IMG/VR virus record: IMGVR_UViG_3300045988_084534
Coordinates: 1 to 64,000 of that record
Source of the DNA: a virus
Strand: one strand, 5' to 3'
Length of the DNA: 64,000 bases
The translations under genes and the position numbers were made by a program. Of this stretch, positions 20,764 through 50,064 are shown one piece after another; the stretch's first letter is position 1; each line of letters begins with the position of its first letter. Below the pieces are notes generated by a model. That model saw nothing but the letters and a program-made list of their open reading frames with translations. It searched no databases and had not been told where the DNA came from.

Positions 20764-21000
20764 TATTTGCCTATGAAGCGGCGGCTATGTTGGTGTGTTG
20801 CCGTTGAGGTACTATTAGGGTTGTGTGAAATCCAAGTTCCAACTTAGGTTTAGTCAAAAGCCGAAAATAAAAACACTCAAAAATATAAAACGAGCAGATA
20901 GGGAGGACAAGTAGCTCAATGAACTTTGGCATACGTTAATGAAGTCCATAATCTAACTGCTCTAATATATAAACAATAAAACAAAGAAAGGAGGTTGAAG

Positions 21001-31698: not shown

Positions 31699-32016
31699 AT
31701 GTGTAAATATGCTAAAGAAAACATATGTACCGTGACAAATGAAATATGCCCATGGATGTTTTTATGCTCTAAAGATGGGCAATGGAAGCCAAATAAATAT
31801 ATGCCGCAAGATTGCCCACAAGCAAGCAAAGCTGAGATTCCAAGCGGATATTATAATGTGCGCATGATTAAGGGTGACTGGCTATATGTGGATCTAGGCG
31901 ACAGAACAATCAAGCTAAAGAACACATTATCATATGTGCCGAAATTTGTCAAGCTGATTAAAAGAAACGGTGAATATAGGATTAAAAAGGAAGGTAAAGG
32001 AAATGAAGGAAATTAA
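31699..32016 (+). CDS. hypothetical Cys-containing protein (105 aa)
   Basis: ORF track; RBS ggagga. Confidence 0.55.
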   Translation: MCKYAKENICTVTNEICPWMFLCSKDGQWKPNKYMPQDCPQASKAEIPSGYYNVRMIKGDWLYVDLGDRTIKLKNTLSYVPKFVKLIKRNGEYRIKKEGKGNEGN

Positions 32017-32931: not shown

Positions 32932-33435
32932 ATGATTATATGTGGTATTGATGCAAGCACCTCTTGCACTGGATGGAGCATTTTCAAAGATGACAAATTG
33001 ATTACATATGGTGCGATTAAGCCGCATGGTGAAGATTGGCGCGGCAGAGTTATGGATTTAACTATGGCGCTTTCAGAGATATTCAAAATCCATAGACCAA
33101 ATATTATATATATGGAAGATGTGCCAATGAAAAAAGGCTCTTTGACCATTGAAAAGCTAGGAGCGGTTCAAGGTGTTGTATTGGCATTATGTGCGGCATG
33201 TAAAATCAAGCCATGCTTCTTGTTGCCAAGTAAATGGCGTAGCGACCTTAATCTTTTTGATGGAACTAGAGCTGGTCTACAAAGAGATGTTCTGAAGAAA
33301 AAAGCCATAGAGATGGTGAATGAGGAATTTGGATTAAATTTAACATGGGTTGCTCCAAGTAGCAAAAAAAACGACGATGATATAGCAGAGTCCATTTTGA
33401 TTGCTTACTCACAGATAAAACAAAGGGGAGTGTGA
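32932..33435 (+). CDS. RuvC-like Holliday junction resolvase
   Basis: ICGIDASTSCTGW, IYMEDV and DDDIAESILIA are the acidic catalytic positions of the RuvC/RNase H fold. Confidence 0.75.
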   Translation: MIICGIDASTSCTGWSIFKDDKLITYGAIKPHGEDWRGRVMDLTMALSEIFKIHRPNIIYMEDVPMKKGSLTIEKLGAVQGVVLALCAACKIKPCFLLPSKWRSDLNLFDGTRAGLQRDVLKKKAIEMVNEEFGLNLTWVAPSSKKNDDDIAESILIAYSQIKQRGV

Positions 33436-33438
33436 TGA

Positions 33439-33730
33439 ATGGCAAAAACAAACAGTAATTACTCCATCATTGCTGATGTTGAGCTTGAGCTAAAAAATGC
33501 GCAAAAACAATTAAACGAGTTTAGGAAAGATAATAAATTAAATCTTGACTTAAATGTTAAAGGTTCTAAAAGTTTATCTGACGCAGATGGTAAAGTAAAA
33601 AAATTAGATGATTCTACCAGAGACCTAGTTTTTACATATCAGCAATTTAGACAGGTGCTAGATTCTGTTGTTGATGTTACTGGCAAAATGGTGGAACAAG
33701 TCAAGACGCTGGATGCGGCACAGACAGAGT
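33439..33730 (+). CDS. tail tape measure protein, exon 1 of 5
   Basis: Coiled-coil N-terminus. The ORF terminates 8 codons after the proposed splice site. Confidence 0.7.
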
Positions 33731-34997
33731 TAATCTTTAGCTCGCTTTCGTTGTAAAACGATTGAAAAATAACCCATTGAATTGCTGGAAACCCCTTAGA
33801 GCTGTCATGCTAAAGCGGAGAGATGAAATACGCTCAAACGTAAATGCTTGAAAAGTTGATAGATTGGGCAATCAGCAGCTAAGACCCGAATAGGGTAAAG
33901 TTCAACGACTATCCCGTAAGGGAGTACACTACAAGCGATTGGTAGTGGAAGTGGTGGGTATCCTAATAGGATAAAGATATAGTCTGGTCTTATAAGAAAT
34001 TATAAGCGCGTAAGCGAATGTAGGAGTAGCGTCCTTTTAATGTAATGATAAGACAAATATTCATAAGGAGGTGAATATGTGTATAGAAGAAAAATAGATT
34101 ATAATTTAGTAAAATCTGAGTTTGATGAGCGTGGATACGAATTATTATCTACAGAATATGTGAATAATGTTACGAAATTGCAATATGTTTGCCCAAAACA
34201 CAGAAACAAAGGTATTTTAGAAACTACATTTGCTAATTTTACAAAGGGAAAAGGATGCCCATATTGTGCAAATAGAGTAAAAAAGACACAAGAAGAATAT
34301 GAGGCAGAGTTAGCAATAAAAAAGCCAACAATTAAAGTAATTGGGAAATATATAAATCTTAAAACAAAGATAGAACATGAATGTGTTGTCTGTGGCTATC
34401 GTTGGGATGTATTGCCAGATAATATGCTACATATGTCAAACGGTTGTCCTAAATGCGGGAAAAGAGCACCATTGAATCAAAATGAGTTAATAAATAGGAT
34501 TGCTAAAATAGATGATTCTATTGAGGTTGTTGGAGAATATTATAATACTGCAACGAAAATGTCTTTTAGGTGTAAGAAATGTGGAAATGTTTGGGAGGCT
34601 AAACCAAATAATATATTGAATGGCAAAGGATGTCCAAATTGCAAATCGTCTAAAGGAGAAAAAGAGGTTGCACGCATTCTTGATGAACTCGATGTATTGT
34701 ATAAACCACAATTTAAGTTTCAGGATTGTAAAGATGAATTGCCACTTCCATTTGACTTTTATCTTCCAGATTATAATATTTGCATAGAATATGATGGTGG
34801 ACAACATTATAAGCCATGCACATTCGGTGGTATTTCTAAAGAGCAAGCAAGAGTGAATTTTGAGCTTGCTAAGAAACATGATAGAATCAAAGATGCGTAT
34901 TGCAAACAACACAACATAAAATTAGTAAGAATCCCGTATTGGGAATATAAAAATATAAGAAATATATTATCATTACATTTACATTAAACACAAAACG
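33731..34997 (+). mobile_element. group I intron (TMP intron 1) with PD-(D/E)XK-type endonuclease gene
   Basis: P1: gagT (33727-30) / Gctc (33740-43). P7: gactatc (33907-13) / gatatagtc (33976-84). Ends in G34997. The join gives ..AAQTEFKKVSDLSG.., which is in frame. Confidence 0.8.
34079..34987 (+). CDS. intron-encoded endonuclease: three Zn-ribbon modules plus C-terminal Vsr/PD-(D/E)XK-like nuclease
   Basis: Repeated C..H/CPxC modules (CPKH..CPYC, CVVCG..CPKCG, CKKCG..CPNC). C-terminal FDFYLP..ICIEYDGGQHY..DRIKDAYC..NIKLVRIPY. Confidence 0.65.
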   Translation: MYRRKIDYNLVKSEFDERGYELLSTEYVNNVTKLQYVCPKHRNKGILETTFANFTKGKGCPYCANRVKKTQEEYEAELAIKKPTIKVIGKYINLKTKIEHECVVCGYRWDVLPDNMLHMSNGCPKCGKRAPLNQNELINRIAKIDDSIEVVGEYYNTATKMSFRCKKCGNVWEAKPNNILNGKGCPNCKSSKGEKEVARILDELDVLYKPQFKFQDCKDELPLPFDFYLPDYNICIEYDGGQHYKPCTFGGISKEQARVNFELAKKHDRIKDAYCKQHNIKLVRIPYWEYKNIRNILSLHLH

Positions 34998-35086
34998 TTA
35001 AGAAGGTCTCTGACCTGTCTGGTAAAGCATTAGACGCTTATCAAGACAAATTATCAAAAGCCGGTAAGACGGTAGGACGAACTGGT
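34998..35086 (+). CDS. tail tape measure protein, exon 2 of 5 (89 nt)
   Basis: Encodes (F)KKVSDLSGKALDAYQDKLSKAGKTVGRTG. Exons 1+2 total 381 nt, which is in frame. Confidence 0.65.
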
Positions 35087-35423
35087 AAACCAAATCGGTC
35101 TGAGCCAGTATGTACAGATGGTAAATGTGCATAAGGAACAGCCCCTAAACCCTTGAAAGCCTCAAGAGCCTTATCACTACAACATGAGGATGAGATATGC
35201 CTGAGTGTGAATGATTCATTAGTAATGAACAATTAGTGCGAAAGCAGAAAGACGATAAGGATGATTCCATGGGCGAAAGACCTAAAGAATCTGTCATAAA
35301 TAATGTATGATAAAAGGGCAGATTGGGCGCGAAGCCGTGATGAGCGGTGTGTCAACAGAATATACAGGGCGGCCCTCCAAATATATAGGGTGAAGAATTA
35401 TTCGGGAAGGGATTGAAAACCTC

Positions 35424-35452
35424 TTGACAAATTATCTAAGATGTGCTATTGT
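35424..35452 (+). promoter_or_regulatory. sigma-A-like promoter inside the intron, upstream of the cargo ORF
   Basis: TTGACA (35424-29), 17 nt, TGcTATTGT (35447-52). Confidence 0.55.
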
Positions 35453-35487
35453 ATAGATACAATAAATAAAGAAACGAGGTATCTATT

Positions 35488-35703
35488 ATGTTCTTGTCTG
35501 TTATGACCTTTATTATCATTGGCCCGATGCTTGTTATCTCTGGGATTGTCGCGCTGATTAAGGAGCTTTCAAACAGCGGGAAAGGCGATAATCAGAGTCA
35601 GTCGAATCAGAATAAATATAACATTCGCTATGAAACGCCGGAAGAAGAAGAGCGGCGAATCAATGAATGGGGTTATGATGATGAAAGGTGGGGCAGATTG
35701 TGA
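35488..35703 (+). CDS. intron-borne small membrane protein (71 aa), function unknown
   Basis: RBS acgaggt 7-8 nt upstream of the ATG. The N-terminal hydrophobic stretch MFLSVMTFIIIGPMLVISGIVALI looks like a TM helix, followed by a charged tail. The stop lies 5 nt before P7'. Confidence 0.6.
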   Translation: MFLSVMTFIIIGPMLVISGIVALIKELSNSGKGDNQSQSNQNKYNIRYETPEEEERRINEWGYDDERWGRL

Positions 35704-35784
35704 TTTTTGTATATATCTGGTTTGCTATTATGATTGTATTTACCATTCTTTGTGTATTTGATTTTAGATAATTTGTAATCACTG

Positions 35785-35997
35785 TCAGAAATGATTTCTG
35801 CTGCATCGCAGTTCAGAAAATCAGGTTTCAATGATGAAGATGCGGCGACATTAGCCAAGGTTGCGGCGCAGTATCAGAACGTAGCCGACACAGCGGTATC
35901 AGCAGAAGATGCAGCAGCTTCTATTACTTCTCAGATTCGTGCATTTGGTGAAGATGCGGCATTTGCTACTACTGTAATTGATGCTTACAACGAGGTT
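35785..35997 (+). CDS. tail tape measure protein, exon 3 of 5
   Basis: SEMISAASQFRKSGFNDEDAATLAKV..AYNEV; 213 nt, in frame. Confidence 0.7.
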
Positions 35998-37233
35998 TAA
36001 TTTTGTAGACCTCTATAAACAGGGTGAATTGCTGGAAACCTAAACTCATATAGAGCATGGTAATCAGCAGCCAAGATTGAGATGAAATGCTCAATAAGGT
36101 TCAGAGACTATCGAAAGCATAATAAATAAAAGTGGGAATATACCACTTGAAGTGAGTAGAGTACACAGTAGTGCTAACTGTGGAAGTGCCCTGCCCTCAT
36201 ATTATATGAGGTGATGATATAGTCCATTCCTATGAGAAATCATAGGCGAGAACTCTATAATAGGTATAATATTTGAAAGAAAAGAAGTTTTGTGTATATG
36301 TGCATATGTTTCCAAATGGGAAAAGATACATTGGTATAACCAGCAAGCGCCCAAATGACAGATGGGAGAGAGGTAGTGGGTATCGTGATAGCTTACCAAT
36401 GCGTAATGCAATAAATAAATATGGATGGGATAATATAGAGCACATAATACTATTTGATGGATTGACACAAGAAGAGGCTTGCAAAAAGGAAGTTGAACTT
36501 ATAGAGAAATATAAAACAAACATTCATAAATACGGCAATCAATATGGATACAACTTAACTGATGGAGGCGAAGGCACTACTGGGCATAAGGTGTCAGAAG
36601 AAAGAAAAGAAATTATGCGCCAACTAAAATTGGGTAAAGTTGGAAAGGATTGTCCAAATTCTCGCCCGATTGTTTGTGATGGGGTTGAGTATGAGAGTTT
36701 AACTGACTTTAAGAATAAGAATAATCATCCAAAAGGCAATATCGCAGCTTGGTTAAATGGTACAGTAGGAATGCCAGAATATTGGTATAATAAACGACTA
36801 CATTATAAAGATTTGGGATTCGATGTTGTTAAATTAGCAGACAATAAAAACCGTGCTAAAAAAGTTGTTGCAGATGGAATTATGTTTGATACGTTAGAAG
36901 ATTGTGCTAATTATTTTGGAGTAGATGCACCAAGGATATGTAATTATCTAAATGGTAAAAATGCTACACCAGACAGAATCATAAATGCAGGACTTAGATA
37001 TGAAGATGAAGATGTGCATGAATTTAAAAGGCAAACTAAAAGAAGTAAGAATAAAATAAAATGTGAAATAGATGGCATTCAATTTAATACACAAGCAGAC
37101 TTAGCGAAATATATAAAAGAAAATAAGGCGACTTTATGGGCTTGGTTTGCTGGGAAAAATCCAATGCCAGAGAAATATGTAAAGAGAGGAATAAAAATTA
37201 TAGAGTAATCTCGGCTCAACTTAGCAAATTGAG
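35998..37233 (+). mobile_element. group I intron (TMP intron 3) with GIY-YIG endonuclease gene
   Basis: P1: gaggtT (35992-97) / Gacctc (36008-13). P7: gactatc (36106-12) / gatatagtc (36216-24). Ends in G37233. Confidence 0.8.
36273..37208 (+). CDS. intron-encoded GIY-YIG homing endonuclease
   Basis: FCVYVHMFPNGKRYIGITS..RW..GSGY..NAINKYGW..EEACKKEVELI; TTG start with a weak RBS. Confidence 0.8.
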   Translation: MKEKKFCVYVHMFPNGKRYIGITSKRPNDRWERGSGYRDSLPMRNAINKYGWDNIEHIILFDGLTQEEACKKEVELIEKYKTNIHKYGNQYGYNLTDGGEGTTGHKVSEERKEIMRQLKLGKVGKDCPNSRPIVCDGVEYESLTDFKNKNNHPKGNIAAWLNGTVGMPEYWYNKRLHYKDLGFDVVKLADNKNRAKKVVADGIMFDTLEDCANYFGVDAPRICNYLNGKNATPDRIINAGLRYEDEDVHEFKRQTKRSKNKIKCEIDGIQFNTQADLAKYIKENKATLWAWFAGKNPMPEKYVKRGIKIIE

Positions 37234-37709
37234 TCAAATATCAAGGCAAACAATTTTAGTGTAGGCACTAATGATTTAGCAAGTGCCATGGAAGTTGCGT
37301 CTAGTGGGCTTGCAACATATGGGAATGAATTTTCTGAGGTACTAGGATTAGTAACAGCAGGCACAGAAATTATGCAAGGGAGATCATTGCAGGTTGCACG
37401 CGGGTTATCAACGATTGCCTCCCGCATTGCAAAAAATCAAGATGCCCTTGCAGAATATGGAATAGCAGTTCAAGATGCCAATGGCAATCTAAAGAGCACA
37501 TATGATGTTCTTGCAGAATTAAAGCCAAAATGGGATCAAATGACCGATGCTCAAAGAGTAGCATTGGGTGACACTCTTGCTGGAACCAATCAATACAAAG
37601 TCCTTGCCGCCGTACTCCAGAATTTTGAGCACGCAACAGCGGCGACTGAAACAGCCCTTAATTCCGCTGGCTCTGCGGCACAGGAAAACGCGAAGTACCT
37701 AGAGAGCCT
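37234..37709 (+). CDS. tail tape measure protein, exon 4 of 5
   Basis: SNIKANNFSVGTNDLASAMEVASSGLATYG..GRSLQVARGLSTIASR..LGDTLAGTNQYKVL is typical of the TP901-type TMP core. Confidence 0.75.
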
Positions 37710-38033
37710 TAACAAAATGGGGTTCTATAAACAAGTCTAATTGCGGGAACACCCTTAGAGCCTTATCAACCAAGTTTTAATAGGAATATTAAGATGGCGA
37801 GGTTAGTGACCGAGGTATGGTAAAATTGATAAGGATTGGGCAACCAGACGCAACCAAGCGTCCAGAACGGACGAAGGCTCATCGACCATCCCTTAATATG
37901 GGAGTAGGAGAAAGTGCTAGTCTCCGAAATGGCTTGACTTGCATAAGCAAGTATGATATGGTCAGTTCTCATATGAAAATATGAGCGGTAGATGTCTACG
38001 ACTAAGATTTAGCACATCTTAGTGAACATAAAG
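37710..38033 (+). mobile_element. ORF-less group I intron (TMP intron 4, 324 nt)
   Basis: P1: agccT (37705-09) / Gggtt (37720-24). P7: gaccatc (37884-90) / gatatggtc (37955-63), which is a compensated variant of the family P7. Ends in G38033. The join gives ..YLESLEAREQSIKAEF.. Confidence 0.7.
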
Positions 38034-41000
38034 CGAAGCCCGCGAACAATCCATCAAAGCAGAATTTGAGGATTTTGCAAATCGCGTATTATCCAAAGAA
38101 GTAGTAGCAGGATTTTATGATGCTACTGAAGCGGCATTACAATTTATTAACACAGATTTTGGTGCAGCCACCACGAGAATCATAGGCACAACAACGGCTA
38201 TTACAAGTCTGGTTGGTATTCTTGGCACAATGGGCGCAAAATTGGTGCTTGTTGGTAAACAGCTACAGGCGGCTGGTGCGGCTAATGGCGTTCTTGGATT
38301 CCTTACTACGCCTAAGACACTGCTTATTATAGCTGGCGTGGTAGCCGCTATTGCTGGCTTAGTTGAGGTTATTAAGTCGGTTGAAAAAGCTCAATATGAG
38401 GCAAATCATGCTTTTGAGATAGCAAATCAAAAATTATCTGAGACACAAAACGAAATTAAGTCTACTGAGGAAAATTTACAAAGTTATAAAAATTCTCTTA
38501 AAGAACTTAATGATGTGGCTGAAAAAGATAGAGGTCTTGCTTGGCAACAAGAACGTGCTGAAATTGAATTAAATATTCAAAGTACAGAGACATACTTAAA
38601 GCTGTTAGAGCAAAAAGCCAAGTTAGAAGCGCAAACGGCGTATGAATCTAAGTTGCCAACTGGTTATACACTTGCAGGCAACCTAAACGAAAATAAATAT
38701 AAGACCGAAGATTATTTTGGCGACTATTTTGCACCTGGCAATTCCCAAGTACAGTTGTCTATGGAGCAAGCTGGTGTTATAACGGCTGTGTATGACAGCG
38801 AATACGAGGCATTATCTAACATCGTTTTAGCACTTGCAAATGCTACAGATGAGCGCTATAGATACATCGAGGCAGAAGATTTAGCTCAACTTGAAGGCAA
38901 ATCAACTGAAGAACAAATTCAGATTATGACTGATTTGTTAGGTAATTTGGGAATCAAGTTGTCCGCTACCACTGAAACGGCTACGCAATCTTTTGCCGCA
39001 ATGGATAATCTTGCCAATAAATCTGGAGAACTTTCAACTAAAGAGAAAGATTTGGCGCAACGATACTTAGACCTGTATCGAAATATTGTTATCCTTGGTG
39101 TGGCAACCGATGAACAAACAAACAGCTATATTCAACTATTGGCTAGAATGTCTGCATTTGACTTGGAGACGGCTAGCACAACAGAAAAGATTAGTTGGTT
39201 AGCAAATGCTTTTGGTATAACAGCTAGTGAATCTGCAAATCTATTATATGCAACTGGTCAATTATCTCTGATTCAGGCTCAAGCTGCACGCGACATGGTA
39301 CAACTTTCTAACGGTATGTGGGCTGCTAAATCTGCGTGTAAACAACTTGACGATGGGACATGGGAATTAAAAGAAAATTTAGACGAAACCGACGATTCAG
39401 CAGAAGACTTGTCCGATTCTCTCAATGCCTATCAAAAATCCATCAAGCAAGTAACCGATGATGAAAAAGCATTTGTCAATTCGCTATTTGATATGAATGG
39501 CAATTTGACCAAAGCGGCTCAACAAGCTCTTACCGCTGATAGTGCTATGGCGAGTTATGCACAGAAAATCCTAGAGGCTCAACAAGCACAAACGCAGTCT
39601 GATTATTCTAATTTAATACTTCAAATTGGTAAGGTTGGAGAAGCAGCTTACGTTAGTAGTAATAGATTACAGTCTTTGATTGCTAGCATTCCGGGCGTTA
39701 CTTCTAGTACATGGTCTGCTGAAAATCAGGAATCTGTGATGCGCCGATTGTTTAACAAGCAAACGGGCAAGAACTGGAAACAAGACGCGGCAGCATATAG
39801 TGAATGGTCATCGAATTATTTGTTAAATTTGAGCCAAAAAAAATATGAAGAACGCTTAAAAGAGCTACAAAATCAAGCAAATGCTATATCTTCATTTGTT
39901 CCATCTACAGGTGGCGGAGGTGGCTCATCTTCTACAACATCTCAAAAATCCCCGGCTCAAATTGCGGCAGAAGCGGCAACGAAAGCGGCTAAGTATAGAC
40001 TAGATGCCTTACAAGATGAGCTTGATGCGCTCAACGATGAAAAATCGGCACTAGAAGATGAAATTCAGCGAATCCAAGATGAGGTCAAGGCTGAATATCA
40101 GGCTGAGATTGATATTCTCAACGATAAGAAAGAGGCTATCCAAGAGGCATATGAGGCATGGGAAGAAGATGCTGATGCTGTACTTGATAGACTCAAAGCA
40201 GAAAAGGACGCTATTCAAGCAGTCATTGACGCTATTGACAAAGAGAAAGAACAACTTGAAGCGGCGACCGCCTATGCTACTGAATATGCCTCTAGGCAGA
40301 TTGATGAAATTGACGCGCGGCTAGATGAGCTAGATGCCCGTGAAGCCGAAATCAATAAAAAATATGATGACGAGCTAGACAAGCTAAAAGCGACCAATAA
40401 AGAGCTGGACAAGCAAATTGAGCGCGAGAAGCTGCTACAAAATCTAGCATCTGCTAAAAATAAGAAAAAGCGGGTATATTCGGCGCAACAGGGTTATATC
40501 CTAGTTGATGATATTGCCGCAATTTCTAAAGCACAGGCAGAGCTTGATAAATTTGACCGTCAGCAAAAACAATCTCTTGAGAAACAGGAGATTGAAAATA
40601 AACGCAAACAAGAGCTGTTAGCATCTGGTGTCGAGGCTGAACGCGCGGCATTAGAAGAGCAGAAAAAGCTCTGGGAAGAATATAGTAAAAAATGGTCTAG
40701 TATTGTTTCTGACTATGAGTTCAAGCAAAATAGACTAGCTTATATTCAGCGATATGGTAAGGCTATTGAGCAACAGAACTGGCAACAGCGCAATAGAACG
40801 GTTGACCAAGCTACCAAAGAATACGCTGATATTATGGCGCGGCTATTGGCTGAACAAGAGCGGATGGCGGCTAAAGAGGCTGAAATTGCGGCTCAAGAGG
40901 CGGCAATGGACGAAGCCAGAATTGCCAATCAGAAAGCAACTGCCGCTATTGAAAAGCAAATCAGCGACCTACAAGATGAAATGGTGGCGGCTCAAGAAGC

Positions 41001-41652
41001 CAGAACTCGCAAGCAAGTAGAATCTCTAAATGCACTGGCTGATGCTATCGAGGACGCTCAAAGGCGTGTTAATCAAGCGCAGAAAGATTATGACTCCGCA
41101 CAAGAAGATGAGGGCGCATATGATGTAGATAAGCCGCGTGTTCTAAAGCAAGTGGGCGGCAAAGCTCCCGATGATGCCAAGGTAGGCGATTATATTGCTA
41201 CGGCAGATGGCATTTATCATATTACTGGCGGATACGCTGGACATTGGAAGAGTAGACGAGTGAGCGGTACTGAGGGGCGTTCCGACTTAAATAATGCGAG
41301 AGCAGCGGCTAATTGGCTAGTTAAAAATGGCTATTTGACCGCTGGCGAATTTGGCTATAGGAGCGGAACAACATCTGCCACACCGGGCTTACATATGCTC
41401 GGTGAAAATGGCCCAGAGCTAGGCGTGTTAAGTCGCGGCGATGGGGTCATCCCAGCCGATATAACCAGAAACCTGATGAACATAGGCAAGAATCCAGAGA
41501 AATTTGCAAATGCCGCTGTTGCCAGAAATGGCGGCGATATTATCATGCAAGGCGTTACTTTGGCATTCCCCAATGTGCGTGATGGCAGTGATGCCGCAAC
41601 ATTCACTAAGAATTTTGTCAACTTGGCGCATCAATATGCCTATAAGCGATAA
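38034..41652 (+). CDS. tail tape measure protein, exon 5 of 5
   Basis: The frame is open from 38032. TM segment (LLIIAGVVAAIAGLV), very long coiled-coil, C-terminal GENGPELGVLSRGDGVIP. The spliced total is 4689 nt, or 1562 aa. Confidence 0.8.
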
Positions 41653-48203: not shown

Positions 48204-48410
48204 ATGACAAATATTGAATTGGCAAAAAAGCACGAAGATGTAGCTAAGAAATATAAGACAGTATATATGTGGGGCTGTTTTGGTCATCCAGTGACCGAGG
48301 CGATTATCAGAGAAAAGGCGGCGCAATATCCTAGTTGGTATACAGCGGCAAAGCAGAGAGAACTAAGAAAGCTGGTCGGCAAGGGATATTTTGCATTTGA
48401 CTGTGTAAAT
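48204..48410 (+). CDS. NlpC/P60-like cell-wall endopeptidase (endolysin), exon 1 of 2 (3' boundary +/-15 nt)
   Basis: ..YMWGCFG..GYFAFDCVN contains the catalytic-Cys FDC motif. The ORF stops 8 codons later. Confidence 0.6.
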
Positions 48411-50064
48411 CTCACTGACTTTAGTGCGCAATAATAGTAATGTTATTGTGTGTTTATTTGAATTGCTGGAAACCCCTTAGAGACATATCAACCACAACGT
48501 AGCTATGAAATATGGGCAAGCGTGATGGTTTGAAAATGATATAGATTGGGCAATCAGCAGCGAAGCTCCGAATAGGAGAACGTTCAACGACTATCCTGTT
48601 AGAGGGAGTACAACGCAAACGATTGGCGTTGGAAGCGGATAAGACCCTATTATATAGGGTGATGATATAGTCTCATCTCATATGAAAGTATGAGGAAAAT
48701 TGTTTGAGTTCACTTATAATACTATAAAAGCAAGGAGGTGGGTATGTGGACAAAAACAGACAACATTACAAGATGTCATTGCTTAAATGGTGTGAATCGA
48801 ATAATAGTAATTTGGTTTACGAATGGGATGAAGCAAATGAAATGGCTATGAACGAGATTGGGTCAAGTAGTGGAATAAAAGTGAAATGGATATGCTCTAG
48901 GTGTGGTTTTCATTTTGAGCAAAGACCTTCAGATAGGGTGAGGGGGCATGGTTGTCCAAAGTGTGCTAGAAAATCTCATTCAAGCGTCCCCGAAACGATA
49001 TGTTATTTGGCTATCAAGCAGTATTTTTCAGATGCGATACATGGATATAAAACCGATTGGCTTGGACGTAAAGAATTGGACATCTTTATCCCATCTATTA
49101 GTGTTGGCATTGAATATGATGGAAATTCTTGGCATAATAAATCCAGAAAACGAACAGATAATGACAAGACGTGGCTATGCGCCCAGCATAATATCTTGAT
49201 CTATCGTATAAGAGAAAACGGATGCGAACCAATGGACGACGAGTCAAATAATATTTATTACAAGCCAAGCAAACAATACAATGCTCTTAAGTATTCTATT
49301 ATAGATGTACTAATGAGGCTTGGACATAATAATGTTGCTTTTGATGACTGGGAGTCGCTTATTAATAAGTCTAAATGTGAATTTTCCAGTATTGAAAGAA
49401 GTAAATCTATTGGTGTAATAAATCCAGAATTTAGTGCAAAATGGGATTACGACAAAAATTATCCTTTAACGCCATATGATATATTGGCTCATTCCAATCA
49501 TAAAGTATGGTTAAGATGTGATAAAGGACATTTGTATAAAAGAGCGCCAAACTATTCAAATCAAAAAGAATGCCCCATATGTATAAATAAAATTGTGCTT
49601 GAGGGCTATAATGATTTGGCAACAATAAGACCAGATTTGGCGTTGGATTGGAATTATGATAGAAATGGCGAATTAAAGCCAACGGAAATAACGTTCGGTT
49701 CTAATCGACGTATTTGGTGGAAATGCCATGCTTGCGGAAACGAATTTCAATCATCTCCAAATGCTAGAAAAGATAATATGGGACATTGTTCAAAATGTGT
49801 GTTCACCAATGGCAATGAAACATTATCAAAAAACAAAGCGGTTAATAATAGTCTTGCTGAGTTTTATCCAGAAATCGCAAAAGAATGGGATTATAACAAT
49901 AATGAAAGAACGCCAGACAATGTTGCAAGGATGTCTGGATTGGAAGCGTGGTGGATTTGTTCAAACGGTCATTCTTGGAAGGCTAGTGTTCATAGTCGAA
50001 CGCATGATGGGAAAAAGTGTCCATATTGTAAACAAACTCAAACAATAAACTGCTAGGCGTAGTG
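48411..50064 (+). mobile_element. group I intron in the endolysin gene with a large Zn-ribbon/PD-(D/E)XK endonuclease gene (boundaries approximate)
   Basis: Core elements match TMP intron 1: a 23-nt identity at 48460-82 and the agattgggcaatcagcagc segment at 48543-61. P7: gactatc (48589-95) / gatatagtc (48664-72). The best P1 is gtaaaT (48405-10) / Gtttat (48452-57). Confidence 0.7.
48746..50056 (+). CDS. intron-encoded endonuclease: N-terminal Zn-ribbon plus Vsr/PD-(D/E)XK-like nuclease, then three W-D-Y/Zn-ribbon repeats
   Basis: CSRCG..CPKC; ELDIFIPSISVGIEYDGNSWH..; the repeats (WDYDKN..CPIC, LDWNYDRN..CHACG..CSKC, KEWDYNNN..CPYC) resemble the DUF4379-type zinc-ribbon. Confidence 0.65.
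   Translation: MDKNRQHYKMSLLKWCESNNSNLVYEWDEANEMAMNEIGSSSGIKVKWICSRCGFHFEQRPSDRVRGHGCPKCARKSHSSVPETICYLAIKQYFSDAIHGYKTDWLGRKELDIFIPSISVGIEYDGNSWHNKSRKRTDNDKTWLCAQHNILIYRIRENGCEPMDDESNNIYYKPSKQYNALKYSIIDVLMRLGHNNVAFDDWESLINKSKCEFSSIERSKSIGVINPEFSAKWDYDKNYPLTPYDILAHSNHKVWLRCDKGHLYKRAPNYSNQKECPICINKIVLEGYNDLATIRPDLALDWNYDRNGELKPTEITFGSNRRIWWKCHACGNEFQSSPNARKDNMGHCSKCVFTNGNETLSKNKAVNNSLAEFYPEIAKEWDYNNNERTPDNVARMSGLEAWWICSNGHSWKASVHSRTHDGKKCPYCKQTQTINC

Follow-up and report, generated by a model that had tools for sequence, protein, structure and literature searches.

The tape-measure protein (TMP) gene of an uncultivated phage, lying in a 64,000-nucleotide (nt) stretch of IMG/VR record IMGVR_UViG_3300045988_084534 (positions 1 to 64,000, hereafter the window), is interrupted at 35087 to 35784 by what we interpret as a group I intron whose P9.1 loop would carry a promoter-equipped membrane-protein cassette, an account of its anatomy and expression logic to which we give a probability of about 0.7. 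An initial annotation had read the element as a group I intron with a promoter-equipped membrane protein as its cargo, and this headline is supported by covariation in the ribozyme, by the ratio of nonsynonymous to synonymous substitution rates (dN/dS) in the cargo, by conservation of the promoter, and by about 45 nuclease-free introns. The window includes the structural region of the phage, with a YomU-type tail tube as well as a TMP with a PF10145 domain, and the TMP gene is organized as follows:

33439 to 41652: TMP gene, interrupted by four intervening sequences
33731 to 34997: intron 1, with an open reading frame (ORF) for a 302-amino-acid (aa) zinc-ribbon/HNH-type endonuclease
35087 to 35784, plus strand: intron 2, the intron studied here, 698 nt
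35998 to 37245: intron 3, with a GIY-YIG ORF
37710 to 38033: intron 4, without an ORF

The boundaries of intron 2 assigned at the outset are borne out by a relative lacking introns 1, 3, and 4, which aligns in five tblastn blocks, one break falling exactly at GRTG|SEM (35086/35785) with the exons in frame. Joining 33439-33730, 34998-35086 (exon 2, just 89 nt), 35785-35997, 37246-37709, and 38034-41652 gives one ORF of 1,558 aa with a single terminal stop. PF10145 covers residues 114 to 311 of the spliced TMP (profile positions 2 to 201 of 201) across the junction at 127|128, and distant TMP genes without the insertion (L072, L098, L101, and L122; 33 to 34% identity) read contiguously through GRTG-[ST]E. 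After splicing, the junction GGU|UCAGA is predicted (ligated-exon sequence CGAACYGGTTCAGARATG). The terminal G35784, also named in the initial annotation, lies within the intron, and every relative likewise ends in G. On this comparative evidence, 35087 to 35784 is a group I-type intron in the TMP gene, predicted to be self-splicing.

Relatives were gathered from the contigs of homologues of the 71-aa cargo protein, from protein-pattern and DNA-pattern scans, and from a TMP-based scan, yielding about 45 loci (L numbers) from human-gut and similar metagenomes. All of them have an intervening sequence of 601 to 1,066 nt at the identical TMP codon. All TMP homologues with 74% identity or more contain the intron, and only those at 33 to 34% identity are without it; in scans of TMP homologues, no empty site turned up among close relatives. 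Of the two marks of a homing intron, an endonuclease and a patchy presence among close relatives, neither was found, and the roughly 45 introns contain no nuclease ORF. The intron is apparently fixed in an abundant clade of gut phages of about 80 to 100 kb.

A structure model of 13 helices and 70 pairs was counted on 33 distinct aligned 5' parts, in which 96.2% of cells are paired. Compensatory changes on both sides occur at 23 of the 70 pairs (161 cells), compared with 1 to 4 pairs in six slid controls, and none of 500 shuffles reached this level; RNAalifold independently recovers P1, P2, P5a, P6a, P7, P8, and P9. The elements of the core, all on the plus strand, are as follows:

35081-86/35104-09: P1, exon ACUGGU with guide GCCAGU, U35086·G35104 at the 5' splice site
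35099-103/35785-89: P10, UCUGA with the 3' exon start UCAGA
35110-16/35126-32: P2 hairpin with the invariant loop GAUGGUAAA
35141-44/35367-70: P3, GCCC with GGGC, enclosing the P4-P6 domain
35150-54/35314-18: tentative P4, CCCUU with AAGGG, invariant
35169-75/35254-60: P5a, with compensatory changes
35263-91: hairpin with stem 35263-67/35287-91 around a GAAA-tetraloop hairpin (35271-82), with compensatory changes
35293-311: hairpin of variable length, with compensatory changes
35329-31/35350-52: P6, in which G·U changes to C-G or A-U, and G to A opposite U
35334-37/35345-48: P6a, with compensatory changes
from 35353: J6/7, CAA (J6/7-P7 sequence GUCAACAGAAUA)
35356-63/35398-404: P7, consisting of C35356, bulged A35357, and G35358 plus AAUA(U), with (U)UAUUC-G
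35372-76/35387-91: P8 hairpin, with compensatory changes
35392-97: J8/7, GAAGAA (J8/7-P7' sequence GAAGAAUUAUUC)
35405-06/35782-83: P9.0, GG
35407-11/35420-25: P9 hairpin, AAGGG with CCUCUU

At the 5' splice site, the U·G pair proposed in the initial annotation is kept in 33 of 33 sequences, and two P1 pairs covary between exon and intron (C-G/G-C and C-G/U-A). P10 can form in 31 of 31 sequences; the 3' exon bases are invariant, so that no covariation is seen. In P2, which exists in three sequence versions, 4 of the 7 pairs show compensatory changes, and the invariance of its loop suggests a tertiary contact. The P2 loop (35118-26) also has a perfect 9-nt complement at 35738-46, within the region of the second cargo ORF described below, seen only in the window, L005, and L006.

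P3 changes from C-G to U-A in 6 sequences and was preferred to an RNAalifold pairing of 35141-44 with 35316-19, which was dropped because it shows U·G changes only. In P7, C-G is replaced by U-A in 24 of 33 sequences and A-U by G-C or C-G in 6; we infer that G35358-C35403 is the G-binding pair, the layout of C, bulge, and G-C being that of a canonical P7. The segments J6/7-P7 and J8/7-P7' are comparable to GUUCAACGACUA and AAGAUAUAGUC in intron 1. The P8 loop accommodates a 30-nt insertion in L066, P9.0 is paired in 30 to 31 of 31 sequences, and P9 is wholly rewritten in three clades (CAAAGU/ACUUUG, AAGUA/UACUU, and CGAGA/UCUCG). The order of helices, P3, P4-P6, P7, P3', P8, P7', and P9 with a P3/P7 pseudoknot, is the group I design, to which the P7 layout and these two junction sequences also conform.

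Within the P4 to P6 region, P6 and P6a are supported and P4 is tentative. The tentative P4 pairing of CCCUU (35150-54) with AAGGG (35314-18) leaves A-rich J3/4, J4/5, and J5/4 segments, while an alternative pairing of GCCU (35159-62) with GGGC (35325-28) abuts P6 at a position that matches P5 of the neighbouring introns; both are invariant, partly because the search key spanned 35313-34. An earlier candidate for P4, CAUGGGC (35268-74) with GCCGUG (35334-39), was ruled out since 35334-37 covaries with 35345-48 as P6a. The register of P6 was set with the divergent members L048, L049, L063, L066, and L073; a first register (35326-30/35349-53), invariant in the initial count, is broken by L048 and L066.

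The placing of this intron in a local family, proposed in the initial annotation, stands in part. The 9-mer AGAUUGGGC (35321-29) is common to introns 1, 2, and 4 of the TMP gene, and introns 1, 3, and 4 resemble intron 2 in the logic of the U·G pair, guide, and terminal G and in sharing AGAUUGGGC and a P5-extension module. They differ from it in that they carry an HNH-type ORF, a GIY-YIG ORF, or no ORF and match the Rfam group I model RF00028 (intron 1, 33721-34006, 98.6 bits; intron 3, 35988-36246, 82.7 bits; intron 4, 37700-37985, 40 bits, E=6e-9, found in a narrow search at an E-value threshold and missed by a standard Rfam scan because 40 bits is below the gathering threshold of 50), whereas intron 2 has membrane-protein cargo and no Rfam score and so is no ordinary member of that family. 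The P7.1/P7.2 of the IA-like neighbouring introns are likewise lacking in intron 2. In the human-gut phage L013 (MT837526.1), a gene other than the TMP gene contains a group I intron of the classical type (1440-1720), which is 88% identical over 50 nt to 35165-35213; this match to the P5-extension module hints that peripheral modules may be exchanged between introns.

The whole catalytic core (P1 to P9) is contained in the first ~340 nt of the intron, 5' of the first cargo ORF, and is followed by a long-range helix and the 3' end, both on the plus strand:

35427-42/35761-76: P9.1-like helix, a 16-nt inverted repeat directly after P9
after P9.1: intron tail of 8 nt, sequence AAUCACUG, with the P9.0 half 35782-83 and the terminal G35784

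The P9.1 duplex has an energy of -17.4 kcal/mol, which none of 200 shuffles reached, and every relative can form a duplex of 12 to 21 base pairs at the same places. Among its compensatory changes, U-A takes the place of C-G in nine sequences, and C-G or G-C that of U-A in seven; in L023, L025, L048, and L049, both strands are entirely different and the duplex still forms. The cargo thus placed lies 3' of P9 in the 318-nt loop closed by this helix, whose 3' strand contains the last codons and stop of the final cargo ORF and whose 5' strand overlaps, in the DNA, part of the promoter (ACA of the -35 box, and the spacer). Folding of P9.1 would return the 3' splice site (G35784, P9.0, and P10) to the core. 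Intron 1 has a similar core-then-ORF layout, with just 10 nt beyond its stop codon.

This arrangement departs from the initial annotation, which had set P7' at 35709-19 and the ORF in P8. The segment 35709-19 is complementary to 35356-65 in the window's own clade only, the best complement elsewhere is arbitrary, and the segment lies inside the second cargo ORF. Because the covarying P7 is 35356-63/35398-404, the first ORF lies outside P8, a short hairpin (35372-91); it sits in the loop of 35427-42/35761-76. The survey of related introns finds about 45 loci with small membrane ORFs at this same place, the P9.1 loop and not P8. The two ORFs of the window cassette are as follows:

35488 to 35703, plus strand: ORF A, 71 aa, with an N-terminal transmembrane helix, a variable linker, and the conserved acidic tail KYNIRYETPEEEERRINEWGYDDERWGRL
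35700 to 35771, plus strand: ORF B, 23 codons (MIFVYIWFAIMIVFTILCVFDFR), hydrophobic, its GTG start overlapping the ORF A stop (GTGA)

The 71-aa ORF, its N-terminal transmembrane-like stretch, and its lack of a nuclease motif were recognized from the start and agree with the later analyses: AlphaFold2 predicts a helix at residues 2 to 30 with a predicted local distance difference test score (pLDDT) of 84 to 92 (mean 67, confident for the transmembrane helix only), and no nuclease domain was detected. That the ORF is conserved is likewise confirmed. Its homologues form 26 clusters of 59 to 93% identity; pairwise dN/dS is 0.21 to 0.29, with synonymous sites saturated between clades, at which distance the aligned ribozyme cores differ at few positions only; indels fall in the linker in multiples of three; and the tail KYNIRYETPEEEERRINEWGYDDERWGRL is nearly invariant. 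As judged from these substitutions, ORF A is real and under protein-level selection. The initial annotation had overlooked ORF B, which may give the cassette a further membrane peptide of very small size; counterparts of 22 to 28 aa follow ORF A in L001, L008, L009, L010, and L012 with an ATGA or GTGA overlap. L011 was dropped from the cargo analysis, since at 2300-2726 it switches abruptly from ORF A to an unrelated, GC-richer coding sequence and is probably a chimeric assembly.

Across the relatives, the introns hold 1 to 3 ORFs of about 60 to 110 aa with one to three hydrophobic segments, belonging to several sequence families, one of which alone comprises 887 clusters; the window cassette is without the third ORF that some relatives have. 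A nuclease ORF was found in this intron at none of the approximately 45 loci. Otherwise unrelated-looking cargo proteins (in L001, L012, L014, L019/L025, L022, L028, L048, and L049) end in a C-terminal motif, [KE]YDN[DE][WYF]G[YIV]I or, in the A family, NEWG[YL]DD.RWG[KR]L, and this sharing suggests a common cytoplasmic binding partner.

What the cargo does can be proposed only tentatively. Our leading proposal, to which we give rather less than even odds, is that it is an early-expressed, envelope-acting factor, for example one that would block the DNA entry of later phages as HK97 gp15 or T4 Imm do. About as likely are roles in lysis timing, the host envelope, or anti-defence, in which the cargo would be directed at the phage's own cycle or at defences of the host, not at competing phages, for example as a holin/antiholin lysis timer, an inhibitor of host division or envelope functions, or an inhibitor of a membrane-bound defence effector. 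Such roles are consistent with small single- or multi-pass membrane proteins with charged tails, with a rapid turnover of copy number and sequence that fits an arms race, with a phage that looks virulent, and with similarity that stays weak and below threshold, to other small transmembrane families only. Nothing specific speaks against them; no holin, spanin, or anti-defence family is matched, and a host-type consensus promoter suits early better than lysis-time expression. Selection on the cargo, in place of homing, would account for the retention of an intron without an endonuclease in all close relatives. More speculative still, and in our view doubtful, is the wider idea that the intron is no selfish passenger but a domesticated gene-nesting device, allowing a rapidly evolving, early-expressed membrane-protein cassette to reside in the late TMP gene, in which P9.1 and the leader hairpin described below sort transcripts between cargo translation and splicing for the TMP and the cargo acts on the tape-measure-mediated DNA entry of rivals, the ribozyme perhaps representing an undescribed group I subclass with P4/P5 rearranged and possibly pseudoknotted.

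The signals for expression of the cassette lie between P9 and ORF A and are, on the plus strand:

35424-29, 35444-45, and 35447-52: sigma-A-type promoter, TTGACA, 17-nt spacer, TG, and TATTGT, with 10 of 12 consensus matches plus TG
35453-60/35479-86: leader hairpin AUAGAUAC/GUAUCUAU, starting directly after the -10 box

The promoter site (TTGACA, N17, TGcTATTGT) had been pointed out in the initial annotation and holds up in comparison: 30 of 30 distinct sequences keep TTGACA, TG at -15/-14, and TAnnnT, with the spacer length always exactly 17 nt, and in L048 the -10 hexamer is the full consensus (TGCTATAAT). The spacers comprise at least 5 unrelated sequences among these 30, and in the L023, L025, and L049 clades, the -35 box is shifted 11 nt from P9 and is still TTGACA; the promoter's conservation is thus not explained by RNA pairing alone. 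The window has 7 occurrences of the strict motif TTGACA-N14-TGnTAnnnT where 0.06 are expected; those outside the intron are:

9029, 9165 (minus), 9190, 9895, 17045 (plus), 31952 (minus): strict motif, mostly upstream of genes

We infer that the strict motif marks this phage's class of host-polymerase promoters, which would probably be early ones, and the divergent cluster at 9.0 to 9.9 kb looks like an early control region. The site at 31952 (minus) is antisense within tail genes, with no obvious ORF behind it.

The leader hairpin has a 3' arm that fills the spacer between the Shine-Dalgarno sequence (GAGG, 35476-79) and the AUG. Most clades are predicted to form it (z of -3 to -5), and it covaries in L038 (AAUCAACC/GGUUGAUU), L042, and L010. 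A small hairpin over the -10 box (35447-64) was dropped, being poorly kept among relatives.

It is improbable, in our judgement, that intron and protein are real while the promoter-like site is non-functional, the cassette being translated late from the pre-mRNA or the excised intron and TTGACA...TAnnnT being kept only as bases of P9, P9.1, and the leader hairpin. In most clades, TTG does end the 3' strand of P9, ACA plus the spacer is the 5' strand of P9.1, and a hairpin that covaries adjoins the -10 region; single promoter-like matches show no enrichment in this AT-rich stretch either (37 found versus 27 expected). Yet the box remains TTGACA where it is displaced by 11 nt from P9 (L023, L025, and L049), the spacer measures 17 nt in 30 of 30 despite its at least 5 unrelated sequences, the TG at -15/-14 is invariant though outside any supported helix, and the strict motif, expected 0.06 times, stands at 6 further sites that lie mostly upstream of genes.

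With a working promoter, two classes of transcript would be expected. (i) Transcripts from the internal promoter would start inside the P9.1 loop, contain no ribozyme, and simply be translated; as the start would lie 6 to 8 nt past the -10 box, the 5' arm of the leader hairpin should be absent from them, and translation of the cargo would probably be early and from transcripts of the host RNA polymerase. (ii) Read-through transcripts of the late tail operon would contain the whole ribozyme, and in most clades the leader hairpin would fold over the spacer between Shine-Dalgarno sequence and AUG, keeping ribosomes off P9.1; we propose that the intron is therefore free to splice and the TMP is made. 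This logic would parallel that of the T4 intron endonuclease genes with the timing reversed.

A number of observations weigh against the intron-and-cassette interpretation. For the ribozyme, RF00028 reports no match for intron 2, either in a 5-kb search or in a 371-nt search at E<=10, and the intron of a relative scores only 11.6 bits (E=2). RF00028 covers only part of group I diversity, and the miss accordingly weighs little against the structural evidence. The two P4 candidates are incompatible as nested helices (together they would form a pseudoknot), and the P4 neighbourhood never varies. For expression, the -35 box and spacer overlap P9/P9.1 in most clades, so that their conservation could be partly RNA-driven; three clades lack the leader hairpin; and, unlike in a classical moron, no terminator-like site was found after the cassette. 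For the cargo, searches of Pfam, PHROGs, and PADLOC with seven cargo proteins gave nothing above threshold (exclusion, holin, toxin, defence, or nuclease), the only similarity being sub-threshold and to generic small transmembrane families, and the suggested function is drawn by analogy for a protein that matches no known family. More generally, splicing, transcription start, and translation are all deduced by comparing sequences.

The question of a moron belongs here as well. Of the features that characterize morons, an own promoter is indicated by sequence conservation, while a terminator and prophage expression are not. No integrase was seen among the larger window ORFs scanned, and a search of 185,579 reference genomes for prophages or hosts with a DNA pattern of the intron core gave 0 matches; the same genomes searched with the tube protein gave one match, a mis-binned contig of a metagenome-assembled genome. 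The lack of an integrase, of the core pattern in these genomes, and of a terminator makes prophage expression unlikely, a further point against a moron-like reading of the cassette, which is more likely to be an early gene of a virulent phage than a moron expressed from a prophage.

It is very unlikely that there is no intron at all, with ORFs of 142 aa and about 1,420 aa encoding separate proteins and the conserved 340 nt serving as a leader or regulatory RNA for small genes. Public gene callers do annotate two ORFs: in L001, L005, L006, and L075, the TMP is split into an ORF of 141 to 142 aa and one of 1,420 to 1,590 aa starting at the Met of SEM. No group I intron is recognized here by Rfam, and an ATG stands at codon 3 of exon 3. 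Against this, the guide covaries with the final bases of the exon; the sequence has P10, the terminal G, and a P3/P7 pseudoknot whose P7 is canonical; one Pfam domain crosses the junction, and contiguous homologues exist; and no Shine-Dalgarno sequence precedes the ATG at 35791. The split gene calls are an annotation artefact caused by the intron. The remaining suggestion, that the ORF is a decaying endonuclease remnant or a chance ORF in intron filler, can appeal to the frequent degeneration of endonuclease genes in introns and to the loss from the window cassette of a third ORF carried by some relatives, but is barely credible given a dN/dS of 0.21 to 0.29, indels in multiples of three, a conserved Shine-Dalgarno sequence, cargo in hundreds of clusters, and no residual nuclease similarity.

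Several known systems share parts of this organization. The td, nrdD, and nrdB introns of T4, which encode I-TevI/II/III, have a looped-out ORF with its own promoter inside the transcription unit of the host gene, and an RNA hairpin hides the ribosome-binding site on read-through transcripts only (PMC2988022). The likeness lies in a phage group I intron, a promoter-equipped looped-out ORF, and a hairpin at the Shine-Dalgarno region, whose role in the intron studied here is proposed. The differences are that (i) in T4 the intron is moved by its cargo, a homing endonuclease, whereas here the cargo is 1 to 3 small membrane proteins and never a nuclease; (ii) T4 places a late or middle promoter in an early gene, whereas a host-type consensus promoter is found here in a late tail gene; and (iii) the core studied here is unlike the IA type and goes undetected by Rfam. 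IStrons of Clostridioides difficile combine a group I intron with an IS605-type element (TnpA/TnpB) near its 3' end and still splice (PMC3984707; PMC10690162). They resemble the present intron in having genes other than homing endonucleases inserted near the intron 3' end; their cargo gives mobility, whereas the cargo here has no recognizable mobility function and occupies one fixed site.

By position, the nearest functional analogue may be the gp15 moron of HK97, with which the studied cassette shares no sequence similarity. It is a small inner-membrane protein of the YebO family with its own promoter, encoded between genes of the tail operon beside the tape-measure gene, equipped with a terminator, expressed from the prophage, and able to block, in a tail-dependent manner, the DNA entry of related phages (PMC3594210). 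The studied cassette differs in lying inside the tape-measure gene within an intron, in having no terminator, and in belonging to a probably virulent phage. A further case of a non-endonuclease gene kept by selection is the group I intron of fungal mitochondrial rnl that encodes the ribosomal protein Rps3. That intron is organellar, and its housekeeping gene has no separate promoter and is often found fused to remnants of an endonuclease.

The suggestion that cargo of this type is rarely described needs dividing. Full-text literature searches returned no description of a phage group I intron with membrane-protein genes, and in reviews and full-text searches, the only bacterial or phage introns with other cargo were the transposase-bearing IStrons; the internal promoter, on the other hand, is known from T4 (PMC2988022). 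Already known, then, are promoter-equipped ORFs in phage introns and non-endonuclease cargo near the intron 3' end, and what is new in combination is the class of cargo, its diversification, the apparent clade-wide fixation of an endonuclease-less intron, the overlap of promoter and P9.1, and a core that Rfam does not recognize. Phage group I introns are usually viewed as selfish elements that persist via their homing endonucleases. If the present interpretation is true, a self-splicing intron can also shelter accessory genes safely within essential ones, with cargo benefit, not homing, explaining its persistence, and a family of membrane proteins of ~60 to 110 aa with a C-terminal [KE]YDN[DE][WYF]G.. 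becomes available for the study of exclusion and the envelope. Two practical gaps are also exposed, namely, that Rfam misses the ribozyme and that public gene calls split the TMP.

As for the surroundings, a BLAST search of GenBank phages found no close relative, the sole match being the 50-nt module in MT837526, and a sequence search of PDB with the TMP N-terminus gave no match. Directly 5' of the TMP gene and amid tail-assembly genes, an ORF for a RuvC-like protein of 167 aa (32932-33435) is present in the window and in all relatives examined. A fifth intron match lies in the window at 48397-48694, and a drum RNA (RF02958, 53.5 bits) is found at 20768-20881, upstream of the structural genes.

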